Source of the DNA: Naegleria gruberi
Lineage: Eukaryota
Direction: 5' to 3' (one strand)
DNA length: 64,000 nucleotides
NCBI GenBank assembly: GCA_000004985.1
Contig: GG738915.1
In this document: one piece after another, positions 11,088-57,404 of the stretch
Numbering within the stretch: position 1 is the first letter of the stretch
Layout: each line of letters begins with the position of its first letter
The notes under the pieces: generated by a model
What the model saw: only the letters and a program-made list of their open reading frames with translations
Databases searched by the model: none
What the model was told of the DNA's origin: nothing
Translations under genes and position numbers: made by a program

Positions 11088-13700
11088 ATGTCATCAACAT
11101 TGCCCTCCAAAACAACAGCAACAACGACGAGCAATGCATCTTCTAAAAACAATAACAACAATAACAACCAAACAAACAAGAGAGTACTGAGTGTTTCAAC
11201 CACCTCAACGACACCAACCATAAACATTGAACAAAACAATAGATCGAAAAAGTTGCCCTCCTTACTAATCTCTCGATCTGAGAGAAGTACAGATGATGAG
11301 GATCAACCTCAGGATAATTTCTACTACTCATCAAATAACAAGAACAATACGAACAATCATCAGAATCATCAGAGAAATAATGATGTCGTTCACCCGTTCA
11401 ATAATAATCACCATTCAAAAAAGAGCAACAATAGGAACGAGAGAGTCTTCACCTCGGTTGTTCCATCGAGTCCTTCATCACCATTAGCCTTGCCGAATAC
11501 GACACAGGGAAAGAAAATGCATGCCTTTGAGAATGATTTCAATAAGAGACAACAACAACAACGAGATGGAAGTGTTTCTGTTAGTGATGATGACTCTTCA
11601 CAAAAATCGCTTATTCCAGTACAGTTACTTGGTTTGCGATCAAAGACAATGACTGCTCTGATTATTACCTTTCTATTGATTATTGCCTTGTGTGTTATTG
11701 GATTGTCCATTTCGTTTGATTCGTCTTTTAGGAGTGTGGAAGAGAGAGAGGCAACCGATTCAATTCTCAAACTATCAAAAGCTCTACAAGATGATTACAC
11801 AATTCTAGCCAATCGATTATATGAATATGCTGCTTGGGATGATGTTTATAATGTATTACAGGAAGAGAGTGCAACAAAAGCACAAGATCTTCTCAAGTCA
11901 TTCTTCGCCTGTGAATACATGGATAGGGTAAATTTGAATTTTGCCATGTATTACTTGCCAAATGGAAGCTTTCTTACTGGACTTGGATGTTATAATCAAG
12001 TTGAGTTATCGGTCTTCCCAACAGAACTCACCAATTTGGATCTATCCTTTTTTTCTCAAGTTTACACACCCACAACAAGGATGAGAACGTACATGATTCC
12101 AACAATGACTGTTGAGGATTTACTGGAACAGAGTGGACAAACCAGACCCTCCACATCATCAAGTACCAATATTTTGATGGTCACTGTACAACCAACTCAA
12201 ACAACTGATAATACAGTTTCTAATGGTTTGGCAATCTTTGCAAGTTATATTACAATGAAACTATTGGAGGAAGAATCAAAGAGAGTTAGATTGTGTGCAA
12301 CTTTTTACAATGTCAATAATACAGAGGATAGAAAATATTTGGAAAAGTACTTTTCTCCTGCAAGTGGACAAACTTTGGATCAATATATTTCCCTACAAGC
12401 ATCTTCAATGGTGAGTCCAAATGATACCTGGACATTTAATGGACCTTTCAAAATGTTGGCAGGCTCAGTGAAAGACACGTCCAAAAGAAAATGTGTTAGT
12501 GATGATGATGGAGGTAAGAGAATTTCCTCATTCAAAATTTTGTCAGATTCCAATGGAGTGGGAAGAGTTGTGATGAGAACAGATCTTCCAAGAGATATCT
12601 ATAATCTTGGTTGGTATTCATTCCTCTATACAATTATTGCATTCCTCGTGTTGATTATTATTTTGACATTTTCAATTTTACTATTTGTGGAATTTGTAGT
12701 CTTGAGGAGAGTAATCAAGATTGGATCATTTGTGAGAAATGTTACCACTGAGAGCGACACTTCAAAGAGAATTCAAAAGATGGGAAGAGACGAGCTTGGA
12801 AATTTGTCTCGTGACATTAACAAAATGTTGGAAGCATTGGAATTTTCACAGGAAAAGCTTGCTCGTGACAATAGCTTAATGGAGAAGATTCTTGAAAGAA
12901 CAGCCCTCGAAGAAGAAAAGAGTCGTTGTCTATTGAATTCAATTACGGATTTTATTGCCACTGTGGAGTGTTCTACTGGTTTGATTGTGAGCATCAACTC
13001 ATCATTTGAAAATAAGGTTTTAAAGAAGAAACAAGTAACCAGCGATGATAATAAGGAAGTATTCGATATTTTCGAATATCTCAAAGAATTTTCTGACAAC
13101 AAACAATTATTGGAAAAATTGGACAAATTGTCACATACAGAGGAGAATTTTGATACAATGGTAACAACAGGTTTAGGTAGCAAGTACCCAGTCTCTATCA
13201 ATGTAAATAAGACCAAGATGACACTCAGAGAGGGACAAGTTGGAGAAGCTTTCATTGTAGTGATGAAAAACCTCTCCGAACAAAAGGATTTCAGAAATCT
13301 AGTTCAACAAGAGAAACTTTCTCAAATCCAACAAATTACCAAATTTGAAAAGATGATGAATGATCAAGATATGAGAAAACGATTCAGAGCTTTTGCAGAA
13401 AAGGAACAAAGCGTTGAAAACTTCCTCTTCTTGGAAGATATTGAAGTTTACAAATCACTGCCAACCACAAAGGAAAGAGCCATTCTCCAAGAAGCAATTA
13501 CAAAGAAATATCTGCAAAATGATAGTGAATTCCCACTCAATGTTTCACAAAAAGTATTAGAAACAGAGTATAAGAAAATTTCAATAGGTTATGGACAACT
13601 TTCTCTCTTTGATAGACTAGAAACCATTGTAAAGGGTATGATTTTAGGTGATACATTCCAAAGATTTATTGATCATGAACAAAATGAGCTCAATAAATAA
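11088..13700 (+). CDS. Receptor-like signalling protein: N/Q-rich N-terminus, then TM1, a ~310-aa extracytoplasmic sensor-like domain and TM2, then HAMP, a PAS-like region and a C-terminal RGS domain
   Basis: TM segments 'ALIITFLLIIALCVIGLSI' and 'YTIIAFLVLIIILTFSILLFVEFVVL'. The HAMP-like region is 'VLRRVIKIGSFVRNV...MGRDELGNLSRDINKMLEAL'. The RGS domain is 'FRAFAEKEQSVENFLFLEDIEVYK...FDRLETIVKGMILGDTFQRFI'. Confidence 0.75.
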   Translation: MSSTLPSKTTATTTSNASSKNNNNNNNQTNKRVLSVSTTSTTPTINIEQNNRSKKLPSLLISRSERSTDDEDQPQDNFYYSSNNKNNTNNHQNHQRNNDVVHPFNNNHHSKKSNNRNERVFTSVVPSSPSSPLALPNTTQGKKMHAFENDFNKRQQQQRDGSVSVSDDDSSQKSLIPVQLLGLRSKTMTALIITFLLIIALCVIGLSISFDSSFRSVEEREATDSILKLSKALQDDYTILANRLYEYAAWDDVYNVLQEESATKAQDLLKSFFACEYMDRVNLNFAMYYLPNGSFLTGLGCYNQVELSVFPTELTNLDLSFFSQVYTPTTRMRTYMIPTMTVEDLLEQSGQTRPSTSSSTNILMVTVQPTQTTDNTVSNGLAIFASYITMKLLEEESKRVRLCATFYNVNNTEDRKYLEKYFSPASGQTLDQYISLQASSMVSPNDTWTFNGPFKMLAGSVKDTSKRKCVSDDDGGKRISSFKILSDSNGVGRVVMRTDLPRDIYNLGWYSFLYTIIAFLVLIIILTFSILLFVEFVVLRRVIKIGSFVRNVTTESDTSKRIQKMGRDELGNLSRDINKMLEALEFSQEKLARDNSLMEKILERTALEEEKSRCLLNSITDFIATVECSTGLIVSINSSFENKVLKKKQVTSDDNKEVFDIFEYLKEFSDNKQLLEKLDKLSHTEENFDTMVTTGLGSKYPVSINVNKTKMTLREGQVGEAFIVVMKNLSEQKDFRNLVQQEKLSQIQQITKFEKMMNDQDMRKRFRAFAEKEQSVENFLFLEDIEVYKSLPTTKERAILQEAITKKYLQNDSEFPLNVSQKVLETEYKKISIGYGQLSLFDRLETIVKGMILGDTFQRFIDHEQNELNK

Positions 13701-34645: not shown

Positions 34646-36607
34646 TCAATTACCAAAATCCAATGGATAGTAACCAACATGATATAGTGGTTCTCTTAGT
34701 GTTGTGTCCTCTAATTTAAATTTCAAATGTTTCTCTGTGCAGTTCAGTAAATGTTCTTCCACTTCTTTGGTTGGATATTCTTCCTTACAACAAGGACAAA
34801 CAGAAAGAGTTCTCAACTGATTGGTATTTTTCTTGCACAGATCAGGTAGATTGTGACAAGTTGCCAAATGTCCAGTTATTAACCGTCTTGGAAAAACCTT
34901 TAAACATCCAGGGCAAGAAATCTCTGCTTCTTGCAGAGCTTGTTTAAATTCCTTTCTCTGTTCTATAATAATGTCGATATCTTGGTCGTAATCAATTTGA
35001 GCCAATGCAGAATTATCATTTGAAATTCTTGGTTTAGTACGAAAAACAAGTTTTGGAATTCTCTCCAGTTGAAGAATTGTTTCATTGTATAGATTAGGTA
35101 ATTTCTTCAATGAGACCCAGCACATTCTCAATGGTTCATCAAGTGTTGTCTTGAGCAAGCTTTCATTTTCAAGAAATTCCATGTATGGGAATGTGAATAA
35201 CAATTTTGAAAGGTTTTTGTAATTTCTTGAAAGAGCAGAAATCAACTCGAAATATTTCACCTCATCATCAGAACCTTGATGTTCATAAAAAGATATTCTA
35301 AAGGTTTCCAGATGAATCATTCCTGAAATGGATTCTCTTACAAGATGACAATCCTTCGACTTGACATCTTCCAATACCAAATGTTTCACATTAACAAATC
35401 CAGAAACGAAAGAACCCAATCTAATTTTCGAAAAAGTATCTCCAATAATCCTTATATACAATTCCTCAATCATTCCTCCAACGCCTCCATAATCAAATGG
35501 AATATTTTGCATTAAGTTTGATTTGAAAAATTCCAATCCCAATGTTAATCTTCTCAATTGTGGATTATTGGCAAGATTTTTACAAAGCTTTTCGAGCGCA
35601 TTTCGAATATCCTGTTCCGTAAGATGTCTTTCAAGGAATTCAGTTGTTATATTATAATCTACCACCCTACTCTTCTCATTGAACACTTCTTTAGCTAATA
35701 ACCCAAAATCTCTTCTATTACTTTTACAAACCAGTAAATTATTACGTGATTCATTATATTCAAACTCTTGCTTGTCATAAAAGTAGAAATTCTCTGAAAA
35801 GTACAAATATTCGAAATGTCCAGAACCGTACCGAGGCAATCTAGTATTGTCAATGACTGCAATTTTTGATTTCATCAAAATATCTCTCAATAAATCCCCA
35901 CTAGAATCCCCAATTACATTTGAAAGTGAAACAAGCTCAGTATCTTTACAAATTTTAACCAACTCTCCCATGGTTTCAACATCCATACTTTCCCATAACT
36001 GTTCTCCATATGGAGATGTTCCATTATTAAACAAGTTAAGTGTAAATCTTCGAAGAGCTGGCTCAGTTAAACTATTTGGAATGTAACCACCTTTCAAACT
36101 CTGCAGTCTTGTGAAAAATTCAATTGATTCTCTCTGTGCTCTATTTGGAATGAAAACTTTCTCATTCCTTGCCAGTGGATTCAAGTTTCCGAATAGACGA
36201 AACTGTTTTCTGCAAATAATATCTTCAATTTGACCATTGATGAATAAATATTTGATTGTCATTCGATTCGATTGGACAAACTTGATCGTGTATCGAACAA
36301 ATGGCAATAGATTTGTTTGAACATTAGTTTCTGTCATGACATTTGGTTGTTCTTCTTCAGATAGGAGCTGGACATTCGGATAGAAATGTAGAGTTTCTAA
36401 TTTTTCAATGACTAATCTTCGCCATGATGAACAAACATGTGGAATAACTTTGATCAACAGGTGAAAATCAAGGTATGGAAATAATCGATAGAAAGCAACT
36501 TCTTCTGGTACCTGTTGATGAAAATACATTTTTTTTAATTGTGTCATATGAACCTTTCGAATATTGTAATAAACGAATCTAAGAAATAATTCAATGGCAT
36601 TGAACAT
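34646..36607 (-). CDS. F-box protein with C-terminal TRAF-like/C2HC zinc-finger region
   Basis: F-box 'VPEEVAFYRLFPYLDFHLLIKVIPHVCSSWRRLV'. C-terminal 'CPGCLKVF...HLATCHNLPDLC...CPCCKEEYPTKEVEEHLLNC'. Confidence 0.55.
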   Translation of the reverse strand: MFNAIELFLRFVYYNIRKVHMTQLKKMYFHQQVPEEVAFYRLFPYLDFHLLIKVIPHVCSSWRRLVIEKLETLHFYPNVQLLSEEEQPNVMTETNVQTNLLPFVRYTIKFVQSNRMTIKYLFINGQIEDIICRKQFRLFGNLNPLARNEKVFIPNRAQRESIEFFTRLQSLKGGYIPNSLTEPALRRFTLNLFNNGTSPYGEQLWESMDVETMGELVKICKDTELVSLSNVIGDSSGDLLRDILMKSKIAVIDNTRLPRYGSGHFEYLYFSENFYFYDKQEFEYNESRNNLLVCKSNRRDFGLLAKEVFNEKSRVVDYNITTEFLERHLTEQDIRNALEKLCKNLANNPQLRRLTLGLEFFKSNLMQNIPFDYGGVGGMIEELYIRIIGDTFSKIRLGSFVSGFVNVKHLVLEDVKSKDCHLVRESISGMIHLETFRISFYEHQGSDDEVKYFELISALSRNYKNLSKLLFTFPYMEFLENESLLKTTLDEPLRMCWVSLKKLPNLYNETILQLERIPKLVFRTKPRISNDNSALAQIDYDQDIDIIIEQRKEFKQALQEAEISCPGCLKVFPRRLITGHLATCHNLPDLCKKNTNQLRTLSVCPCCKEEYPTKEVEEHLLNCTEKHLKFKLEDTTLREPLYHVGYYPLDFGN

Positions 36608-37140: not shown

Positions 37141-40100
37141 TTAATGCATAGCTTGGCTGTGGATCATGTTGGACACGGAATGGACATTGAAAAGGTTGTA
37201 AATCAGCTCAATGTTTGCTGTTCGAATGGTGTTGAAAGATTCCAAATCTTTGAGCCATTTCTGTAGAGTTTCAATAATGGTATGCTCATCGTCTGGTTTA
37301 TACAATCCAACAGATATGCCAATCTTGAACTTGTTGATAAAGTTTTCCAGTGTTGTGTCTGGTTGATGATGCAGGGCAATGATTGCATTCTGTGTGGCCA
37401 TTGATTGAAATACAATTGGTGGAATGGAAACTTGTGAAGTGCTTTGGACACCACACGAGTCACTAAATAGATTCACATGAGAATAGGGAGAGAAGAGTCG
37501 AAGGTACTTTTTGAGAGTTCTACTACTTGCCTTCTTTCCTGGCTTGACAAAGAGGATTCTATCAGGATGTTTGGAAGTGAGCTCTTCAATCATTGAGAAT
37601 AGTTTGATGGTGTTATGAGTTTTAGATTCCTTTTCATTTCTGTCCTCAGGGAAAATGTCAAGATTGTAAGATAATTTCTTATCGGTGAGAAGAAGGAATT
37701 TCACTCTTTCAAGATGTTCGCTCTCCAAAATATATTTGATGATTTTAAAGACATCAGAATCACATCTACTCTTGTCCTCATCTGAAATCCAATAACTGAT
37801 TATCAAATCCTTTGAATTCTCGTCGAAATTCAGAATATCTTTCGAACCAATAAGAGTAAAGTCTTCTTCGTTAACATTCACCAAATAGTCGAGCTTCTTA
37901 TCAGATGGCTTGACACGGAACTCTGCCAAATTGACCAATGAAGGATACAGAACACTAGTCTTCTCAGATTTGATTTCAATAAGACTTGATAACTGAGTCA
38001 AGTCTGGAGAAGAGAGGAAGGTCTTGTAAACGAGATCATTATGTTTTACACTCTCAGTTATGTACTTGTTGGTGTTTGATGTGTAAATATAATCCAAAAC
38101 TCTAGTAAACTCCATCAATTGAGGAGGTAATAAAGATAATGACTTGTAACCAAGAATGCTTTCCATTATGAAAATATTATGAATATGTCTTGTAGAAATG
38201 ACATATTGAATTAGTAGGGAGAGTACATGTTCATCTGGAGGCAAAGTTTTGTCAACAAAATGATTCAGATGGAAAATATCTGTCGAATATCTTTCCAATT
38301 CTGCACGATAGGCATGATTTGATTCTTCTGTGTCAGTAGTTATTACAACCACGTGCCAGTCGTACTCAAATATAAATGATTCCATGAGTTTAACTATGAA
38401 TTCTCTTCTTCTTGGGTCATTTAAATTTTCTGAGACCAGAATGATTGATCTATCTTTACCCTTGTGGAATTTGTGACGATCATGAGCCAGTCTCCTCAGA
38501 ATTGTCTTTGAGTTTGGAATTTTAACTTTGGTAGTGAGGTATCCTCTGCTTTGCAGCTCTTTTGCTGCCTTCTCCTCAAACATGGTCTTGTATCTCTTTT
38601 TCAGATGTGTGCTGATAAATTTCTTTTCCTCTGACTTTTCAGTGGTTACTCTATCAGAATCCTTTTCCTTCCCTTGAATATTGTGCCAAAGCAAAACTTC
38701 TGGAATGGTCCATGAACGATAGCCTTTTTGGATATATTTCACCCAAAAATCCCAAATAACTAATGAGTATTCCATAGGATTAGAATTAAATCCTCCTAAT
38801 TTTTCAAAAACTTGTTTCTCAATCATAAAGGTGGAATGGAACAAGTTCTTTTGTGTTAACATTTGGGCAGACTCCTGTACTCGATACAGATTGAAGAATT
38901 TCATCTTATCAAATTCTAGTGTCATTGTATTCACCATAGTAATAGGTGTGGATGTGGAGAGTGTTTGGAATTCCAAGAAGAGAAATAATTTCTCAAGCAA
39001 AGAAGGTTCAATCATGCCCCCTGACTCTACAAATGTTAAATACCTCGATTCTTTTGCTAAATATTTACATGCTACAATTTTGAGCATTCCTTGTGATTGC
39101 TTCTCATTTGAAAAGATGAGAGAAATCTTGTTTGTTTTGTACATTTTTCCAATATCTATTGGTGTTTCTTTTTCCACTGTTGGATTGATAGAGAGCCACC
39201 TTAATATCTTATCATGAGGCTCGCCTTGGTTTACAATGATAATCCACTCAAAATATCTAAATGTTTGTCTCAATATTGAGTCTCGTGTGTTCTTGAAGGA
39301 ATCTTCATTTGAAAAAGTAGTAATTACAGAAACTAGAGGAGTATCCTTTCCTAAATGATTATTATTGAATTTGTGAACACTAATTTTCTCTTTGGAATAG
39401 ATTCTATAGTTGGATATTGGAGTATTTTGAAATAAAAATTCATCATATGGCATGACTGGCAGTATCGAGTCCATTTGTTCGAAATATGAAGTATGATTTT
39501 TAGAGTTGACATGTTTAGAAATTATTGAATGGTGTTTTGATTTGACAGTCTTTTTTGAATTTCCTTGTTGATGCTTGCCTCTCAAAATATGTCCATGTGA
39601 ATGAACAGTATCTTTTTGTTGAGTAGCAACTTCCTTATGAATAGGTAGACCCTTGTCATCTTTTGAAATTACAGTCTCTGTTCTATATATTGAAATAAAT
39701 CCTGAAATGAGTAGAAACATCAAAATGATTACAAGTAAGAAGGCAGTAAGTGTGCATTCCACTTTTTCAGGTCTTTCTTTCAGCATTTTAGTTTCATCAA
39801 TTGTATTTCTCTTTCCTCTCTTACTCTTTTTTGCTGGTTTTGAATTAAACCTCTTCATGACGCTCCTATTTCTGTTTGTTGAAGAGTATGAGAAGGAAGT
39901 TCCTCTTTCCACATCGTAATCGTCATCATCATCGTCATCACCATCTAAAGTAATAAAACTTCCTCTTCCTCTAGGTAGATAATCATCACCATCCGAATCA
40001 TCAAACTCCTCCTCTCCACTCGAATTTGTATAATTTTGATAATCTTGATCATCCATGATATTAATTCCCAAATCAACTTCTCTCATTTCTTCGTCATCAT

Positions 40101-40230
40101 CGGAATCATCCACTCCATCATCCCTCCTCTTTTTAAATAACTGTTTATGAATATCAACCTTCCTTTGAGTTGTCGAAGAAGCAGAAGAACCTCCACGAAC
40201 AAACGAAGGAGGACCAAAACCTTGAAACAT
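37141..40230 (-). CDS. Type II membrane glycosyltransferase (acidic N-terminal tail, one TM, GT2-like catalytic module and a second GT-like C-terminal module)
   Basis: TM 'LTAFLLVIILMFLLISGFISIY'. GT2-like 'VSVITTFSNEDSFKNTRDSILRQTFRYFEWIIIVNQGE'. Large 1029-aa single exon. Confidence 0.55.
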   Translation of the reverse strand: MFQGFGPPSFVRGGSSASSTTQRKVDIHKQLFKKRRDDGVDDSDDDEEMREVDLGINIMDDQDYQNYTNSSGEEEFDDSDGDDYLPRGRGSFITLDGDDDDDDDYDVERGTSFSYSSTNRNRSVMKRFNSKPAKKSKRGKRNTIDETKMLKERPEKVECTLTAFLLVIILMFLLISGFISIYRTETVISKDDKGLPIHKEVATQQKDTVHSHGHILRGKHQQGNSKKTVKSKHHSIISKHVNSKNHTSYFEQMDSILPVMPYDEFLFQNTPISNYRIYSKEKISVHKFNNNHLGKDTPLVSVITTFSNEDSFKNTRDSILRQTFRYFEWIIIVNQGEPHDKILRWLSINPTVEKETPIDIGKMYKTNKISLIFSNEKQSQGMLKIVACKYLAKESRYLTFVESGGMIEPSLLEKLFLFLEFQTLSTSTPITMVNTMTLEFDKMKFFNLYRVQESAQMLTQKNLFHSTFMIEKQVFEKLGGFNSNPMEYSLVIWDFWVKYIQKGYRSWTIPEVLLWHNIQGKEKDSDRVTTEKSEEKKFISTHLKKRYKTMFEEKAAKELQSRGYLTTKVKIPNSKTILRRLAHDRHKFHKGKDRSIILVSENLNDPRRREFIVKLMESFIFEYDWHVVVITTDTEESNHAYRAELERYSTDIFHLNHFVDKTLPPDEHVLSLLIQYVISTRHIHNIFIMESILGYKSLSLLPPQLMEFTRVLDYIYTSNTNKYITESVKHNDLVYKTFLSSPDLTQLSSLIEIKSEKTSVLYPSLVNLAEFRVKPSDKKLDYLVNVNEEDFTLIGSKDILNFDENSKDLIISYWISDEDKSRCDSDVFKIIKYILESEHLERVKFLLLTDKKLSYNLDIFPEDRNEKESKTHNTIKLFSMIEELTSKHPDRILFVKPGKKASSRTLKKYLRLFSPYSHVNLFSDSCGVQSTSQVSIPPIVFQSMATQNAIIALHHQPDTTLENFINKFKIGISVGLYKPDDEHTIIETLQKWLKDLESFNTIRTANIELIYNLFNVHSVSNMIHSQAMH

Positions 40231-42098: not shown

Positions 42099-43539
42099 TT
42101 AGATAAATCTTCTTTCCTTTGGGATGTAATTTCTTTGGGAGAGTTCATACTTGTAGGCTTCATCCAATTTGAATAATAATCTTGTTGGATATTCATCGAG
42201 TGGGAATTCTGAAAGGAAAGATCTTTCAATAAATGTTCTTGCATCTAAACCCATAACTGTACGGTCCTTAATTTTGTACACTCCAATATAATCCTCGCAG
42301 TAAACATCTTCGTATTGCTTGATTGATTCTCTTGTAAATATTTTACATGGCAATTTGAGAGATGTGAAATAATCAAAATGGTTAAATTGAGCTGCCATAA
42401 AGTCGATGAATAATTCCTCTTGGTTGGCTGTGTTGTCCACTTCTTCCAAAATTAATCTTGACCATATGTGCTTGTCAAAATCTCTGACTACAACATCACC
42501 CTTGTGAATAGCATACCAATTGACAGATTTGCATCTCACATTACCAAATTGCAATCCGAAATTTGATAATCTATACAATTTCCACTCTCCACTAGATTTA
42601 GAAGGGAGCATTATGAAAATCTCCTTATTATTAGCTTTCAATCTGAAAAGAGATCTAATCCAAGCAAGATTAGCAAATCCATTTGGTTTCTTTTCTCCAT
42701 GTGAAAATTTGTAGTAATATTGATGAGATATTGGGAATTCAGTATCGGTAGCAATTTTTGGAATGGTACAATAAACATTACTATAATCCAATATTGGTTG
42801 GAGTGTTCCCTTATTTTTCTTAGCAAGTTCCTCAAAGTATGTCACCTCCTGTTGAATACTTTCTTGGTGAGCAATGAATTTTTCAGGTGGACAAGGAATA
42901 TCAAAACATTTTCCTTCACTCTTTGGATCAAAGTAATCCTCAACTTGCCAAGTATCATGGTATGGTTTGTGTAAAATTGATCTCAATTGTTTCACAGAGA
43001 AAATATACTTGTTTGTCTGTTCGCATCCCAAGCCAATCAATGTTGTCAAATTAATATAATCTGGAAATAATGCTTTTTGAAGATCCACCAATTTTTGATT
43101 GGTTGGCAATCGGAGCATGGCATCCAAAAGAACTGCACAAATTTAAATCAAAACAAATTAAATTGCCAATACAAACCTTTGTATGCCATCACATTGTTAT
43201 TTGGTGCAATACTTTGAATCAATCTAATAATTGCTTTTTCATTCAATGGATCAAGGTTTAACACTTGATTACAATCGAAAATAGCTTGTTCATACTCTTT
43301 CTATAAACATATTAACAACAGTCAACCAACCACAAAATCCAAAAACCTACCAAAGACAAACAAGCTTGTGCTCTATTATTAAAAACTCTCACATATTGTT
43401 GCTTTACTTCCTCCGATGACTGATCGCCAACCATCGATAACAATCGGATGGCTTCCGAATACACTTCCTTGGCTTGAGCAAACTTTTTTTCTCTCACAAA
43501 ATTATTTCCCTGACCAATCACGTTCTCAATTTGTTCCAT
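42099..43539 (-). CDS. TPR-repeat protein with ~340-aa uncharacterised C-terminal domain. Exons complement(join(42099..43132,43177..43300,43351..43539)).
   Basis: TPR helices 'AQAKEVYSEAIRL...NNRAQACLSL|KEYEQAIFDCNQVLNLDPLNEKAIIR'. Introns are 50 nt (GTAGGT..tatag) and 44 nt (GTTTGT..tgcag). Confidence 0.55.
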
Positions 43540-43851
43540 TTTTTTGATGGTTTTAATAATAGTCACTCAATTTTTATAAGGAACGTTAAGGTATGAAGTA
43601 AGAAATAATTTTTGATTTCAGGGAACAAGACCAGATGAGAAGAATGAATAATTGTTTTGCTAATTTCCAATTATTTGGGCTTCTAATTGGAAGTTTTAGA
43701 AAGTTTGGAAACAGCAAAAATCTAAAATCAAAAAAATCAAAAGTTTTTGGTGTTTTATTCTCTGCACGTCTTTGTAAATATATATATTAGCAAAATCAAC
43801 AACAAGAACCAACAAACAACAATAGCCTATTTATTTTGATAGAAGTTAACA

Positions 43852-45693
43852 ATGGAATCCTACTGGCTCGGACCTAATAATGAAGTCTCTCAAGTGCCTA
43901 CAAATAATGATTCATCCTCTCCTGTGAATGATGATGAGGATTTTAATAGTAATACAAGAAGTGAAGAAGTAACCTCTTCGGTGGCTACAAGTACAATCCT
44001 GATGGATAGACAACAAAACCAACAACATCATCATCATCATCAATCGAATAATCATCATAATCATGATTCACCTCAGAGTAATAATAATAACAATGATCAA
44101 AGAGAGGATATGATTTCGGAATCACCTACAAAATTTAATAGCTACTTGGATAATGTATTAAAATCGAGTTTCATGACCAATTTAATTGTGTCGTATTGGG
44201 ACAATAATATGGGTCCTCGACCTTTGAAAATTTGGAATGGAACAGTACCAAGAAGTGAAATTCTAACAGATGATACCCTCTTGTTTATTTCTAGATTTTC
44301 AATGATGGATGATATGCCAAGATATGAAGAAATTGGACCAAATATTGAAATTAAATTTAATATCATGTCGGATTTGAATGTAATGGTACTAACAGCTGTA
44401 TTTTGCAGTAAAAATTGGGAAAAGGGAACATCAAGGTCGTTCTTTAGGAGAAAGGTTGATCCTCCACCAACTTTATTTACAATCAGTATTGTAATGAATA
44501 GAGAAAATCTCTCCAAATTTATGGTCATTAATTTTATCATGAAGGAAAAACTCATTACACTTGCCAAGATTATGAAACACTTTGCTGATCAATATACCAA
44601 TTCGAATCAGAATGAAGTTATTTCAAATTTCGAGAACCATTTACATGAATTTGTACAATTATACGATTCTCTGAGTAGAATTGTTTATAGCCCGCCATCA
44701 ATGAATTTGTATACTACTTTATTCAGTGAAGAAATTTCACTGAAAAGACTCTATGAAAGTGAAGAGGAATCAATATTTCTCCAACGAGCAATATCATCAC
44801 ATTTAGAAACACATGGTTATAGTGTAGTGGTTGGCTTACCTAATCAATTGAGGGAAATCAATGTTTGGGTGAATACATTGGCCATGTTCCTTTCACAACA
44901 CGAGAAACAATTAATCAAACATGCCAAAAAGATTGAAGCTACAAAACTACCAACAGAAATTCAAACAGTTGTAAAAACTAGTTTCTTCAAGAGAGCCTCA
45001 GCACCAGTTAAAATGTTGGATCCTGAAAATCTATTCAAACCTGAAATATTTGTACAAGGTCTTGTAGTTACACCTGATGTTTCGCATTGGAAAGACTTGA
45101 TACCTACAAAATCACTACTATCTGGTAGATATCCAATATCAGTTATAGATTTAAAAGATAGAAAAGTATATTCCTTTAAAAAGTATCAGTATTTCCAAGC
45201 TTTTAAGCAGGAATTCTTTGAAGAATCCGAGTCAAAGAATATTCTCAATGATTTTGGAATTCAAAACACTGGTAACGACAAACAATTTAGAGATCACTAT
45301 GAAGAGGCTAGAAGAATTTGCACAAGTGTTCAAGAGCTGTTCTATGTCATTCTCAAAGTTATGCCCCTAACAATATATCCCTCTATGAGATATTCCCTCA
45401 TTTCTGAGTTTGTTCGGCTTCTTAATAGAAAGGCGTTGGCACTTGCAAAATACGTTCATTCAATGAGGAATGTGGAAATGATAGCGCCTGCCAAAATTCA
45501 AAAGGTTCTAGTGAAACATGTTATGATTAATAATAGTGTTCAGAAATACAGACCTGATGATTTGACTTCTGAATTAATGGCCATTACTGCTACAGCAGAG
45601 AAATTACAACACGGAGTTTATACAATAGTAACAGGAGATCCAAGACAAGAGGCAGAAGATGTTGTTAACTTTTTGGGGTCGACAAATTTCTAA
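43852..45693 (+). CDS. C9orf72: C9orf72 orthologue (DENN-like longin-domain GEF-complex subunit)
   Basis: 'LIVSYWDNNMGPRPLKIWNG' (human 'ATFAYWDNILGPRVRHIWAP'). 'LQRAISSHLETHGYSVVVGLPNQ' (human 'LLNAISSHLQTCGCSVVVGSSAE'). 'FVQGLVVTPD' (human 'FVQGLLKDST'). The N-terminus is low-complexity and His-rich. Confidence 0.7.
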   Translation: MESYWLGPNNEVSQVPTNNDSSSPVNDDEDFNSNTRSEEVTSSVATSTILMDRQQNQQHHHHHQSNNHHNHDSPQSNNNNNDQREDMISESPTKFNSYLDNVLKSSFMTNLIVSYWDNNMGPRPLKIWNGTVPRSEILTDDTLLFISRFSMMDDMPRYEEIGPNIEIKFNIMSDLNVMVLTAVFCSKNWEKGTSRSFFRRKVDPPPTLFTISIVMNRENLSKFMVINFIMKEKLITLAKIMKHFADQYTNSNQNEVISNFENHLHEFVQLYDSLSRIVYSPPSMNLYTTLFSEEISLKRLYESEEESIFLQRAISSHLETHGYSVVVGLPNQLREINVWVNTLAMFLSQHEKQLIKHAKKIEATKLPTEIQTVVKTSFFKRASAPVKMLDPENLFKPEIFVQGLVVTPDVSHWKDLIPTKSLLSGRYPISVIDLKDRKVYSFKKYQYFQAFKQEFFEESESKNILNDFGIQNTGNDKQFRDHYEEARRICTSVQELFYVILKVMPLTIYPSMRYSLISEFVRLLNRKALALAKYVHSMRNVEMIAPAKIQKVLVKHVMINNSVQKYRPDDLTSELMAITATAEKLQHGVYTIVTGDPRQEAEDVVNFLGSTNF

Positions 45694-45842: not shown

Positions 45843-47055
45843 TTAGTTAAGCTTAACAATGTTAGCCTTCAAAGACTTGATGACATTCTTTGGTTCAGCA
45901 CTTGGACAGGCATGAACGAACTTACAGATCTTGGTTGGGGTAACAGCAAGAAGGAGTTTTTGAACAAGGACAGGTGTATAGGTATCAACCAAATTTTCAC
46001 AGGCTGGTCCGAAGGTGGATGGCAATTTAGCACAGACCTTGTCCAATTTGTCTTCAACAAACTTGTCAATTGATTGTTGATTGATTTCTCTTTGGACGAG
46101 TTCCATAGCCATAATACAAGCTGGACAGATGGCCAACTTCTTGATTTCAGAGGTCATGACTGGAGCAGCGAATTGCTTAGCAATGAAAGCTTGCTTGGAT
46201 GAACACAAGTGCAAACCAGAACAGATTTGAGATGGGGAGTTGTGATCTTCGAGCTTCTTGATAATGTATGGAACCATTCTAGCAATAGACAAACAAGTTT
46301 GAGTAAAGACAGATGGAATGTTTGAGCACAATTGGTTCAACTTCTTTTGGATTTCTTGTTGAGAGTGATTAGAGTTGATGAAGTTTTCAATTTGACCAAC
46401 AGCATACTTGCAGATTTCACATTCAGCATCACCAGCCTTAGCTTCAGCCTTTGGAGCTTCAACAACAGGGGTAGCAACTGGAGCTTCAACAGTAGAGTTC
46501 TTTGGGCAGAGTGGCAATTGATCAGTACAGACTCTGACTGGAGTTTCATAGGTAATCAAAGCATTCAACAATTCATGACCATAGACGAGAACAACAGTGT
46601 TACAGATCTTTCCGAATTGGTTATCACCCAATTGAGAACAGACACCGAGGAGGGCCTTTTCAATAGCTGTAATAACAACAACAAGATAATGATGATGAAT
46701 ATTTAACATTTAGAGTGTTAATAAATAACATACCTGGTTCTTCCTTGAGGGCAAGGGCTTCAACAGTTTGGACAGCATATTCACAGACGCTACAGAATTG
46801 GCTTGGAGCAGCAGTAGTGAATGAGAGGGAGGCTATAGTACCATAATATAACATATTTCATCAATGTCCACAAAAATTATTAAATAACGATCATCCAACA
46901 TCATTTCATCATATTCAAAAATAATAATCATCGTCATTATCGCATCATGATATGTATATTTAATAATATTAATATTCCCTTCTATTGATGATGATTAAAT
47001 ACTACATACCAACAATAGCCAACAAGACGGCAACAATAATGGTGGAGGTCTTCAT
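45843..47055 (-). CDS. Multi-saposin-domain precursor (signal peptide plus three SapB domains; prosaposin/naegleriapore-precursor-like). Exons complement(join(45843..46666,46734..46832,47010..47055)).
   Basis: Signal 'MKTSTIIVAVLLAIVG'. The three 6-Cys SapB units are 'CSVCEYAVQTVEAL...VCTDQLPLC', 'CEICKYAVGQIENF...ICSGLHLC' and 'CPACIMAMELVQRE...ICKFVHAC'. Introns are 177 nt and 67 nt (GTATGT donors). Confidence 0.8.
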
Positions 47056-53988: not shown

Positions 53989-54360
53989 TTTTTTTGATGA
54001 AGAAATTTGAAAATTCGTAAAGTATCTTCTTTGCTGATGATTCTTGTTCGCTCTTGTTGAATAATCATCAAATAGCAAGTGATAGGATGTGAATTGATGA
54101 ACACGAATTCAAGGTTGGTTTTGGATATGTTGAAGGTTAGAGGAAAATTGCATTTTGTATAGAAGGAGTACAATGTTAATACTCCGAGGGCAGGTAGATT
54201 TTTTGTGTCGAATCGTTTTGGGTATTGTAAGTTCTGTCAGGTAACTTTGCAAATATTTTGTCATACATTTATAATCTTAATGATCACAGTTGAGCTGTTT
54301 TACAATCTTGTTGTAAATTGTAAAGTTTTGGATTTATCAATTCAAATCAGACTGAAAAAA

Positions 54361-55528
54361 ATGGGACAATCACAACCATCGTATCCTGCCTCTACTCCAC
54401 CATGCAATTGTGATGATAAACACAACGTGAGAGAGAGTGTCATTAAAAAGATTGGAAATGTCAGAATGGTTCCGATTGATATTTTCCAAACATTGTTGGA
54501 ACAAGAGGAGAAGAATGATGAGAATTTAATTGATTTATTTAATGAGGAAAATTGTTCGATTTATGAGAAGGAATTACCTCATGAATTATTTATTCATATT
54601 TTAGGATATCTTACAGGGAGTGAAATTGTAAAACTGGGACGAACTTGTAAAAATTTTCAGTTTTATTGGATTAGAAATAGGACCTTGTGGAAAGGGATAT
54701 TGCAAAAGGAAGAACGTGATGATTTTGTTCCTTTCATGTATTTTAGACCAATTTTTGATTCATCAATGATTCAATCTATAATTTATTATCATACATATTT
54801 TATTCCACTTATTAGGAACTCATTCAAACGTAGTGATGAAAAGCAGATAAAAGCTTTTACCAAGACTGTACTGTTAGGACCTGAAGGAAGTGGAAAATCT
54901 GAAATTGTAGCAAGAATTGTCGGTAAAGACTTTGATCCTACTTATACTCCTACAATTGGTATGTTTTTTAATAATATTTTCAGACATTTATAAAGATTTA
55001 TTAGGTGTTGAGTTTGCAATGGTACCATATCAATTAAGCACTGGAATTAATGTTAAAATGCAGTACTGGGATGCTTCAGGCAAACCTACTTTCAACTCAC
55101 TTTCGAGAGCCTACACGAGAGGTGTACATGTAATCGGTTTCTGTTTTGATTTAAACAATGAAGAGTCATTTTCAGAAATGAAGAACAGAGTTGAGATTTA
55201 TAGAAATGAGAATTTTTCAAATTTAAAGTGGAATGCAAACCTGAAGGAGGAAAACGCTCACCTTTTAATTCTCGGAATGAAAAGAGATTTGGAGAGAAAG
55301 GTATCGATACAGCAAGTAAAAGAATACATTTCCGAACTAATTCAAGTAAAAAAGGAAGGAATATTACTGAAAGATTTGAGAATTCAATATTTTGAATTGA
55401 GTAACAAGACAGACACGATAGAAATGATAGAATTTCCGTTTATGTATGGTGTCCTCCAAGTAGAAGATAAGCTGGCAGTCGAAAGTCCACCACAACCTGT
55501 ACATGGTAATCTTCCTGCCAAGAAATAA
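54361..55528 (+). CDS. F-box domain fused to a divergent Ras-superfamily small GTPase. Exons join(54361..54958,55005..55528).
   Basis: F-box 'LPHELFIHILGYLTGSEIVKLGRTCKNFQ'. P-loop 'LLGPEGSGKSE'. Switch region 'PTIG|VEFAM' spans a 46-nt GTATGT...ttag intron. G3 'WDASG'. G4-like 'LGMKRD'. Confidence 0.65.
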
Positions 55529-55682
55529 CATCATTTCACAATTCCTATCAAACAACGATTTTTTGTAAAGTTTAGCGAAATTGGAACATACAAATCACCG
55601 CCATAAACACTACAAAAAAAAATAGCAAAATCAAGATTTCTGGATTTCTTCGGATTGATTTTGTATGCCAATACTTTGAAAA

Positions 55683-57404
55683 ATGATAACACCAACAATA
55701 TTCAATAGTGATGTGCGGGGGATGGTTGATGATGAAGATGATTGTCAAATGGTGATTTCACCAATGGAAAGATATTCGGATCATTCATTAGTCAATTTAC
55801 CTTCCGAGATTATTCATTTAATTTGTCAATATTTGCAATCACATGATTTGTTTTATTCATTGTTTGCTTTGAGTAGACATTGGTATGAATCATTGGCAAT
55901 GTATCCAACAATATTTCTGAGAAGATGTAAAAATGCAGAAGGTGCCATACAAGTATTGAGAAATAGATTTAAAGACTTGAGATTTCTTAATTTGAGTGGT
56001 TTGCAATTGTATGACGAAAATGGTTGCAAAACTGATTCATCGAATACTATTCTTAAGGTTTTGAGAGATTCAATGAGAGAGGGATGTACTAAATTGAACT
56101 ATTTCAGAATGGCTAATTGCTTAACTAGTCCAAAACAGGTCAAAGTCGATGAACCACAAAAAACTGAGGAGTTAACGCTCGATGAATATGACATGGTTGG
56201 TGATGGTAATAATTGGATTGCAGAGCCAGCTGGCAATGGCTATGGTGAAGAAGTTATCATTGAAGTTTCTCCGAAATTTATAGAAACAGTTGTGTTTGAA
56301 ATGATGGGACAAATTAAGAAAATTCAAGTAGAAGATATTATTGACCCATACGATGCTAATTGTAATGCCCAACCAAAGGAAGTATCGTTCTACATTTCCA
56401 GATGTAAAAATATTAGCACTGAGGCATTTGAATCGTTGGGTCGTAACCCAAGATTTTGTTCTTCAGTTACCAAAATGATGCTTGAATGGGATGTTGGAGT
56501 CAATAGCCAATCTATTTGCGTAATGTCTCAATATTTTACAAATATTACAAGTTTGAGTATCGCCAATTGTGTTAATATCGATTCTGCTGGTTTTGAGGCA
56601 ATAAGCAAAATGACTGGAATACATACTCTAACCCTAGTTGGTACTACAATTAGGGACGCTGATTTATTAACAATCTCTAAACTTCCAAACCTTAAAAGTA
56701 TCGACTTGACAGGATGTAAGAATACTGTCCAATCTGAGGAAACCATTGTGCAATTCTTGACAAACTGTCCTCAAATGGAAGAGCTATTCCTTGTTGATTG
56801 CAACTTGACTGATTGGACCTTGCATATTATTAAGGAAAAGCTCAAGAATTTGAAATTCTTGGACATTTCTTGGAATGTAGATTTCACAGATGAAGGAATG
56901 TTTAATATTCTTGGAGAATTACCAAACCTCGAAAGCTTTAACATTACCACTGGTGCAAAAATTGAATTAGCCATTCTACTAAAGGATGATAACTCGTTAT
57001 TGGCCTCGAGTGAGGATGTTGGAAAGGACCTCTATACCCCTCTCTTACCAAAGCTCACCAAATTGAACTTGAGCATGAGAAACTATCAGTGTAATGAAAG
57101 TATACAAGCTGTTTTAAGAAATACTCCTAATTTAGTATCCCTCCAACTATCTGGTTGTTCTCGCCTTACAGACGATTCCTTCTCTAACATTAATCCAAAA
57201 ATTTATCCTCTTCGTAAATTGAAAGAAGTTCACTTGATGCGTTGCTCTTGGTTGACTGACGAAAGTCTCAACAAGCTCATGCCACTTTGCATTTCAAGCC
57301 TAGAAAATCTATTCCTCCAAAGATCCAAATTCTCTAAACAAAAAATCGATGAATGGAAATATAAACTCGAGAATATCAAGAAAATTGGTTATCCAAAAAG
57401 GTAA
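55683..57404 (+). CDS. F-box/LRR-repeat protein (FBXL/Skp2-like)
   Basis: F-box 'LVNLPSEIIHLICQYLQSHDLFYSLFALSRHWYESL'. Then 10 or more cysteine-containing LRRs ('CPQMEELFLVDCNLTD', 'LKFLDISWNVDFTDEGM', ...). Confidence 0.7.
   Translation: MITPTIFNSDVRGMVDDEDDCQMVISPMERYSDHSLVNLPSEIIHLICQYLQSHDLFYSLFALSRHWYESLAMYPTIFLRRCKNAEGAIQVLRNRFKDLRFLNLSGLQLYDENGCKTDSSNTILKVLRDSMREGCTKLNYFRMANCLTSPKQVKVDEPQKTEELTLDEYDMVGDGNNWIAEPAGNGYGEEVIIEVSPKFIETVVFEMMGQIKKIQVEDIIDPYDANCNAQPKEVSFYISRCKNISTEAFESLGRNPRFCSSVTKMMLEWDVGVNSQSICVMSQYFTNITSLSIANCVNIDSAGFEAISKMTGIHTLTLVGTTIRDADLLTISKLPNLKSIDLTGCKNTVQSEETIVQFLTNCPQMEELFLVDCNLTDWTLHIIKEKLKNLKFLDISWNVDFTDEGMFNILGELPNLESFNITTGAKIELAILLKDDNSLLASSEDVGKDLYTPLLPKLTKLNLSMRNYQCNESIQAVLRNTPNLVSLQLSGCSRLTDDSFSNINPKIYPLRKLKEVHLMRCSWLTDESLNKLMPLCISSLENLFLQRSKFSKQKIDEWKYKLENIKKIGYPKR

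Follow-up and report, generated by a model that had tools for sequence, protein, structure and literature searches.

The gene and its open reading frame

The DNA analyzed here is a 64,000-nucleotide stretch of contig GG738915.1 from the Naegleria gruberi assembly GCA_000004985.1 (referred to as the window; 34% G+C), and the element in question is a plus-strand gene at positions 43852 to 45693 that a preliminary description had taken for an orthologue of human C9orf72. The coordinates given in that description are precisely those of an open reading frame (ORF), which runs uninterrupted for 613 codons from an ATG at 43852 to a TAA stop at 45691-45693, with a TAG directly after it. There is an in-frame TAG at 43840-43842, 12 nt 5′ of the ATG, and the ORF therefore has no 5′ extension within the same exon. 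The translation is identical in 613 of 613 residues to the N. gruberi protein XP_002670445.1 (EFC37701.1, NAEGRDRAFT_81857, UniProt D2VZQ9), so that the window is nuclear DNA of N. gruberi and the gene model in public databases consists of this one exon; the public records label this protein just "hypothetical/uncharacterized protein." The ORF is a real, complete, and intact one-exon gene, and its features are collected in Table 1.

Table 1. Positions of the C9orf72 gene and of the features of its product within the 64,000-nucleotide window
Feature	Position	Strand	Basis
Complete single-exon coding sequence, very probable N. gruberi C9orf72 orthologue, 613 residues plus TAA	43852..45693	+	ORF; 613/613 identity; PF15019 E 4.7e-17; PDB match to human C9orf72 only
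N-terminal extension, residues 1-95, N/S/Q/D/H-rich, predicted disordered	43852..44136	+	Predicted local distance difference test (pLDDT) <50 for residues 1-84; composition; human alignment starts at residue 112
Conserved N-terminal peptide, residues 1-15, M-x-SYW-[LI]-GPNNEVS	43852..43896	+	Kept in three Naegleria sequences; next ~80 residues not
CAT/AAT (His/Asn) trinucleotide microsatellite in the disordered extension, length-polymorphic	44026..44064	+	Tandem Repeats Finder: period 3, 12 copies
Longin domain, residues about 97-289, human ~20-200 equivalent, approximate boundaries	44140..44718	+	
WD...GP motif (W116 D117 N N M G121 P122), counterpart of human W33-D34 and G38-P39 in the GTPase-activating protein (GAP) catalytic pocket	44197..44217	+	Aligned to human C9orf72
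DENN module (central DENN plus helical d-DENN), residues about 290-611, human ~200-467 equivalent	44719..45684	+	
Variable low-confidence DENN loop, residues ~355-400	44914..45051	+	pLDDT 53-72; Willaertia N/S-rich insertion here in alignment

The probability of 613 codons without a stop is about 3e-21 at a stop frequency of 0.074 per codon, the value expected from the window's base composition, and the ORF is therefore not random. A random ORF or a decaying, functionless pseudogene, for which the "hypothetical protein" label and the lack of experimental data are the only support, would have to be reconciled not just with that length but also with 65-67% full-length identity to the orthologues of N. 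fowleri and another Naegleria, and with the confident predicted fold described below. It would likewise have to be reconciled with the differences from an N. gruberi-like allele of environmental origin (ENA contig L001), in which the coding sequence shows 12 synonymous and 2 non-synonymous substitutions along with a 6-bp in-frame indel, a ratio that indicates purifying selection. Taken together, the stop-free length, the relatives, the selection, and the predicted fold rule such a reading out, and we treat its probability as negligible.

Assignment to the C9orf72 family

PF15019 (C9orf72-like) was the sole Pfam family to match the protein at an expectation value (E) of 1 or less, with a score of 62.9 bits compared with a cutoff of 27 (E 4.7e-17). 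Of all PDB chains searched with phmmer, those of human C9orf72 were the only ones to match (6lt0_C, 6v4u, 7mge, 7o2w; E 1.9e-17), with a colinear alignment in two stretches that places residues 112-354 and 391-597 of the Naegleria protein against 29-262 and 268-467 of the human chain. In the reverse direction, where the search with human C9orf72 covered the 64-kb window and the collected relatives, tblastn gave a single match in the window at 44191-45642 (E 1.4e-22), the runner-up having an E of 2.2. The human C9orf72 query agrees with the stretches displayed in the PDB alignment, and the human SMCR8 query was checked against 6lt0_B, with which it agreed at 937 of 937 positions.

The closest database proteins are a 611-residue metagenome protein that is 99% identical, whose 90% cluster includes XP_002670445.1, followed by N. 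fowleri FDP41_001320 (67%), a Naegleria-like protein (65%), and Willaertia magna ABK040_008765, and all four carry a precomputed PF15019 match. A word-index profile search with the Naegleria/Willaertia alignment returned the same four proteins again, and the wider set needed an index-free HMMER scan, which found 96 representative relatives in 1.84 billion proteins. Every one of the 65 full-length relatives belongs to PF15019 and none to any other DENN family, and human C9orf72 matches 98 of the 99 proteins formed by the relatives and the four close homologues. There is a single protein cluster for each Naegleria species.

One alternative is that the protein belongs to another longin-DENN family, such as folliculin, SMCR8, FNIP/Lst4, NPRL2/3, or the classical DENN Rab GEFs (guanine nucleotide exchange factors), and that its likeness to C9orf72 is superficial. 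The SMCR8, FLCN, FNIP2, and NPRL2/3 chains were all present in the PDB library that was searched, and none of them matched even at E≤10. Neither a match to the PF11704 (folliculin/SMCR8) profile nor a match to a solved FLCN or SMCR8 chain was found, and BLASTP of human SMCR8 against the ORF protein gave a best E of 0.41, which is not significant. FNIP2/Lst4, folliculin, and SMCR8, the sister longin-DENN subunits found in lysosomal GAP complexes, show no detectable sequence similarity to the Naegleria protein. Pfam, the PDB sequence search, the purity of the relatives, and the structural comparison given below effectively refute this alternative, which we regard as extremely improbable.

The suggestion that this is a clear C9orf72 orthologue is therefore borne out by Pfam, the PDB search, reverse tblastn, the relatives, and Foldseek, and a best match to folliculin or another DENN family, which had been named as the outcome that would overturn it, was obtained in no direction that was tried. 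The full-length longin and DENN (c-DENN, d-DENN) architecture is present rather than a partial homology. The N. gruberi protein is almost certainly a member of the C9orf72 family, and the ORF very probably represents the single-copy C9orf72 orthologue of this species, encoding a longin and DENN protein with a lineage-specific disordered N-terminal extension.

Predicted fold and pocket motif

An AlphaFold2 model built on the sequences of the 65 relatives has a mean pLDDT of 82.4 and a predicted template modeling score of 0.81, with residues 1-84 disordered (pLDDT <50) and with loops at about residues 186-206 and 355-400 that are less confident. When the model was compared with the PDB by Foldseek, the top four entries were all C9orf72 chains, the best with an E of 6.8e-17 and a target-normalized template modeling score of 0.80, and SMCR8 came next with an E of 5e-3. 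The confident predicted fold is roughly twice as good a match to C9orf72 as to any other longin-DENN protein.

In the PDB search alignment the segment YWDNNMGPRP of the Naegleria protein lies opposite YWDNILGPRV of human C9orf72, in which W33-D34 is essential for GAP activity and G38-P39 is a family-wide pocket motif (PMC12290439). Among the 65 relatives these pocket residues are kept in 58 (W), 52 (D), 60 (G), and 58 (P), and other family-wide blocks (AISSHLxTxGxSVVVG, FVQG, and LLxRKA) are likewise intact in the Naegleria protein.

Compared with human C9orf72, the Naegleria protein adds the disordered N-terminal extension of about 95 residues and has a longer loop at residues 355-400, and its gene differs in having a single exon. 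A search of the window for the GGGGCC repeat found none, and the human disease mechanism, which is the expansion of an intronic GGGGCC repeat, is therefore without a counterpart in the Naegleria gene. The Willaertia magna protein belongs to the same Pfam family over its full length and is approximately 54-65% identical, and it differs from the Naegleria protein in that it is without the N-terminal SYWLGPNNEVS peptide and has about 100 more low-complexity residues in the DENN loop.

N-terminal extension

The conservation of the first 15 residues, along with the upstream in-frame TAG, supports the ATG at 43852 as the true start. The coding CAT/AAT repeat differs by 6 bp, corresponding to two His codons, between the reference and the environmental allele L001.

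The peptide ESYWLGPNNEV (43852-43896) echoes the pocket motif VSYWDNNMGP (44191-44217), with SYW, NN, and GP occurring in both, a resemblance that may reflect chance, a very small duplication, or mimicry with a regulatory role. It is conceivable, and in our estimation very unlikely, that the peptide on its variable acidic and His-rich disordered linker is a lineage-specific regulatory element, that is, an intramolecular mimic or docking motif that would control the assembly or activity of the GAP pocket, or else that the protein works without the canonical SMCR8-WDR41 pair.

Genomic neighborhood

On the 3′ side, a 288-residue ORF at 45843-46709 on the minus strand encodes saposin-B domains (two stretches of PF05184 and three of PF03489), like a prosaposin or a naegleriapore-type precursor, and it stands tail-to-tail with the C9orf72 gene at a distance of 149 bp. 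The same adjacency is found on the environmental contig L001 and in N. fowleri (contig L002, 11902-13278), where FDP41_001320 belongs to the same Pfam family over its full length and is also tail-to-tail with a saposin-domain neighbor. The shared saposin neighbor supports positional orthology within Naegleria, and the N. gruberi gene is a single-copy, vertically inherited orthologue with a conserved position in the genus.

The genes 5′ of C9orf72 are rearranged in N. fowleri relative to N. gruberi. In N. gruberi a small gene at 43070-43566 on the minus strand stands head-to-head with C9orf72, and some 290-310 bp separate it from the C9orf72 ATG. A GTAGGT donor site appears to close the first exon of this small gene (MEQIENVIGQGNNF...), which would therefore be spliced, unlike its C9orf72 neighbor. 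In the same neighborhood N. fowleri has a gene of 382 residues with faint matches to TPR_1 and TPR_2, and directly upstream of C9orf72 it has genes of 1031 and 582 residues with no Pfam match. The N. gruberi window contains minus-strand ORFs of 1029 residues (37141-40230) and 653 residues (34646-36607) with no Pfam or PDB sequence match, and if the N. fowleri pair are their counterparts, then local gene order has been rearranged between the two species. The protein of the 1029-residue ORF has a hydrophobic, membrane-anchor-like stretch, and its match to a glycosyltransferase in the PDB is non-significant (E 0.15).

In Willaertia magna a PQ-loop gene (PF04193, 516 residues; contig L004, 19615-21350) lies about 7.5 kb 3′ of the C9orf72 gene. 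In human, the C9orf72 complex has PQLC2 as its lysosomal receptor. Near the Naegleria C9orf72 genes no PQ-loop gene was noticed, and the proximity in Willaertia is probably coincidental.

The genes that surround C9orf72 in the window are of ordinary eukaryotic kinds, encoding a polo kinase, an AP sigma subunit, a mitochondrial carrier, PIP5K, an Rce1-like protease, GINS Psf1, a TFIIB-like protein, a class II aminoacyl-tRNA synthetase, and actin. Two further loci have, or may have, less usual domain combinations. At 54205-57404 on the plus strand, an F-box and then a Ras/Roc-type small GTPase domain are spread over the overlapping ORFs 54205-54993 and 54917-55528, an overlap that probably comes from an intron or a frame change, and a leucine-rich-repeat ORF follows on the same strand at 55683-57404, such that the whole could be an unusual F-box-GTPase-leucine-rich-repeat architecture. 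At 11088-13700 on the plus strand, an ORF of 870 residues joins a CHASE4 sensor domain, a type typical of bacteria, to an RGS domain at its C terminus, and this pairing is uncommon among eukaryotic signaling proteins.

Putative complex and mechanism

In the human proteins, C9orf72 pairs through the longin domains with SMCR8, whose R147 is the arginine finger, and the C9orf72-SMCR8 heterodimer together with WDR41 has GAP activity that is directed chiefly at Arf1/5/6 and is weak toward Rab8/11 (PMC12290439). The complex, which is reflected in PDB entries 6LT0, 6V4U, and 7MGE, reaches lysosomes via WDR41 and PQLC2 under conditions of cationic amino acid scarcity (PMC12290439). By analogy, Naegleria C9orf72 would be the longin-DENN subunit without an arginine finger in a GAP of the C9orf72-SMCR8-WDR41 (CSW) type, a partner subunit as is human C9orf72, and its longin domain would pair with an SMCR8-like subunit that brings the arginine finger. 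The pair, possibly joined by a WDR41-like β-propeller, would stimulate GTP hydrolysis by Arf and, less strongly, by Rab proteins, and it may act on lysosomal or endosomal membranes in a manner tied to nutrient status. From the conservation of the pocket motif by itself we infer a GAP activity that would be directed toward Arf1/5/6 and less strongly toward Rab8/11. That both the complex and the GAP mechanism operate in Naegleria as they do in human appears reasonably likely. The preliminary description had spoken of a GAP/GEF complex with SMCR8 and WDR41; the GAP half of this agrees with what is now known of the human complex, and the GEF half does not, as the current evidence for that complex is for GAP activity (PMC12290439).

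Several observations weigh against so complete a transfer from the human system. Identity to human C9orf72 is only 23.5% by tblastn, and biochemical equivalence is therefore an extrapolation; the public label of the N. gruberi protein is "hypothetical." The N-terminal extension of about 95 residues and its conserved first 15 residues are without human counterpart. The partners also did not come to light in the window, where tblastn with human SMCR8 gave a best E of 7.5 and where none of the 38 ORFs scanned with Pfam carried a folliculin/SMCR8 domain or a WD40 domain, the latter in scans to which no WDR41 query was added. A human-SMCR8-seeded search of a database of 5.8 billion proteins gave only mammalian sequences among the 120 matches listed.

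Particular genes were considered as partners and set aside. The ORFs at 37141-40230 and 34646-36607 were each rejected as SMCR8, having no SMCR8 match in the PDB sequence search, and the Willaertia gene directly 3′ of C9orf72 was likewise rejected as a partner candidate, having neither a Pfam nor a PDB match.

That no partner gene came to light in the window or in the SMCR8-seeded search fits the possibility that this true C9orf72-family protein works differently in Naegleria. It might then act by itself or with a different set of partners, perhaps as a GTPase platform or a GEF in phagocytosis or in trafficking linked to the cytoskeleton, and the N-terminal peptide would be a regulatory or docking element particular to the lineage. 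Such a working would also be consistent with the report that, of the parts of the complex, SMCR8 diverges most and is retained least universally, with the conservation of the Naegleria-specific SYW[LI]GPNNEVS beside a variable linker, and with the speculation of Zhang et al. (2012) about an ancestral cytoskeleton- or phagotrophy-linked role. However, the WD and GP motifs, which are relevant only in a heterodimeric GAP pocket, are intact, and the Percolozoa are included in the published concatenated three-subunit C9orf72-SMCR8-WDR41 tree, which implies that the partners are present in the lineage. We regard a different working of this kind as quite unlikely. The literature also supports partners indirectly in that related longin-DENN proteins, namely FNIP, Npr2, and Npr3, were reported in heteroloboseans by Zhang et al. 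2012 (PMC3521125).

Relation to earlier work and significance

The presence of C9orf72 in Naegleria is already known, and its recovery here is an ordinary finding. In 2012 Zhang, Iyer, He, and Aravind (PMC3521125) identified protist homologues of C9orf72, and Naegleria is explicitly counted among their finds in PMC12290439. Levine et al. 2013 (PMC3570213) described one copy, of 400-750 residues, in most species that have C9orf72, and Novak Vanclova et al. 2025 traced the entire complex across the eukaryotes. The N. gruberi C9orf72 protein is present in NCBI, UniProt, and EukProt, and a literature search by the identifiers NAEGRDRAFT_81857, XP_002670445, D2VZQ9, and EFC37701 found no papers in the library that was searched. 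The patchy distribution in microbial eukaryotes that had been ascribed to the family is as published (PMC3521125, PMC12290439). The proposed usefulness of the gene for lineage assignment adds little, since the lineage already follows from the 100% identity to a protein of N. gruberi.

The significance of the finding beyond correct annotation is small, and Naegleria C9orf72 raises no new question. Its practical yield is a proper name for a "hypothetical" protein, namely C9orf72 homologue, longin-DENN subunit of a putative CSW-type GAP complex, and it provides a further data point suggesting that a lysosome- and nutrient-linked GAP module may have been retained in free-living heterotrophic discobids.
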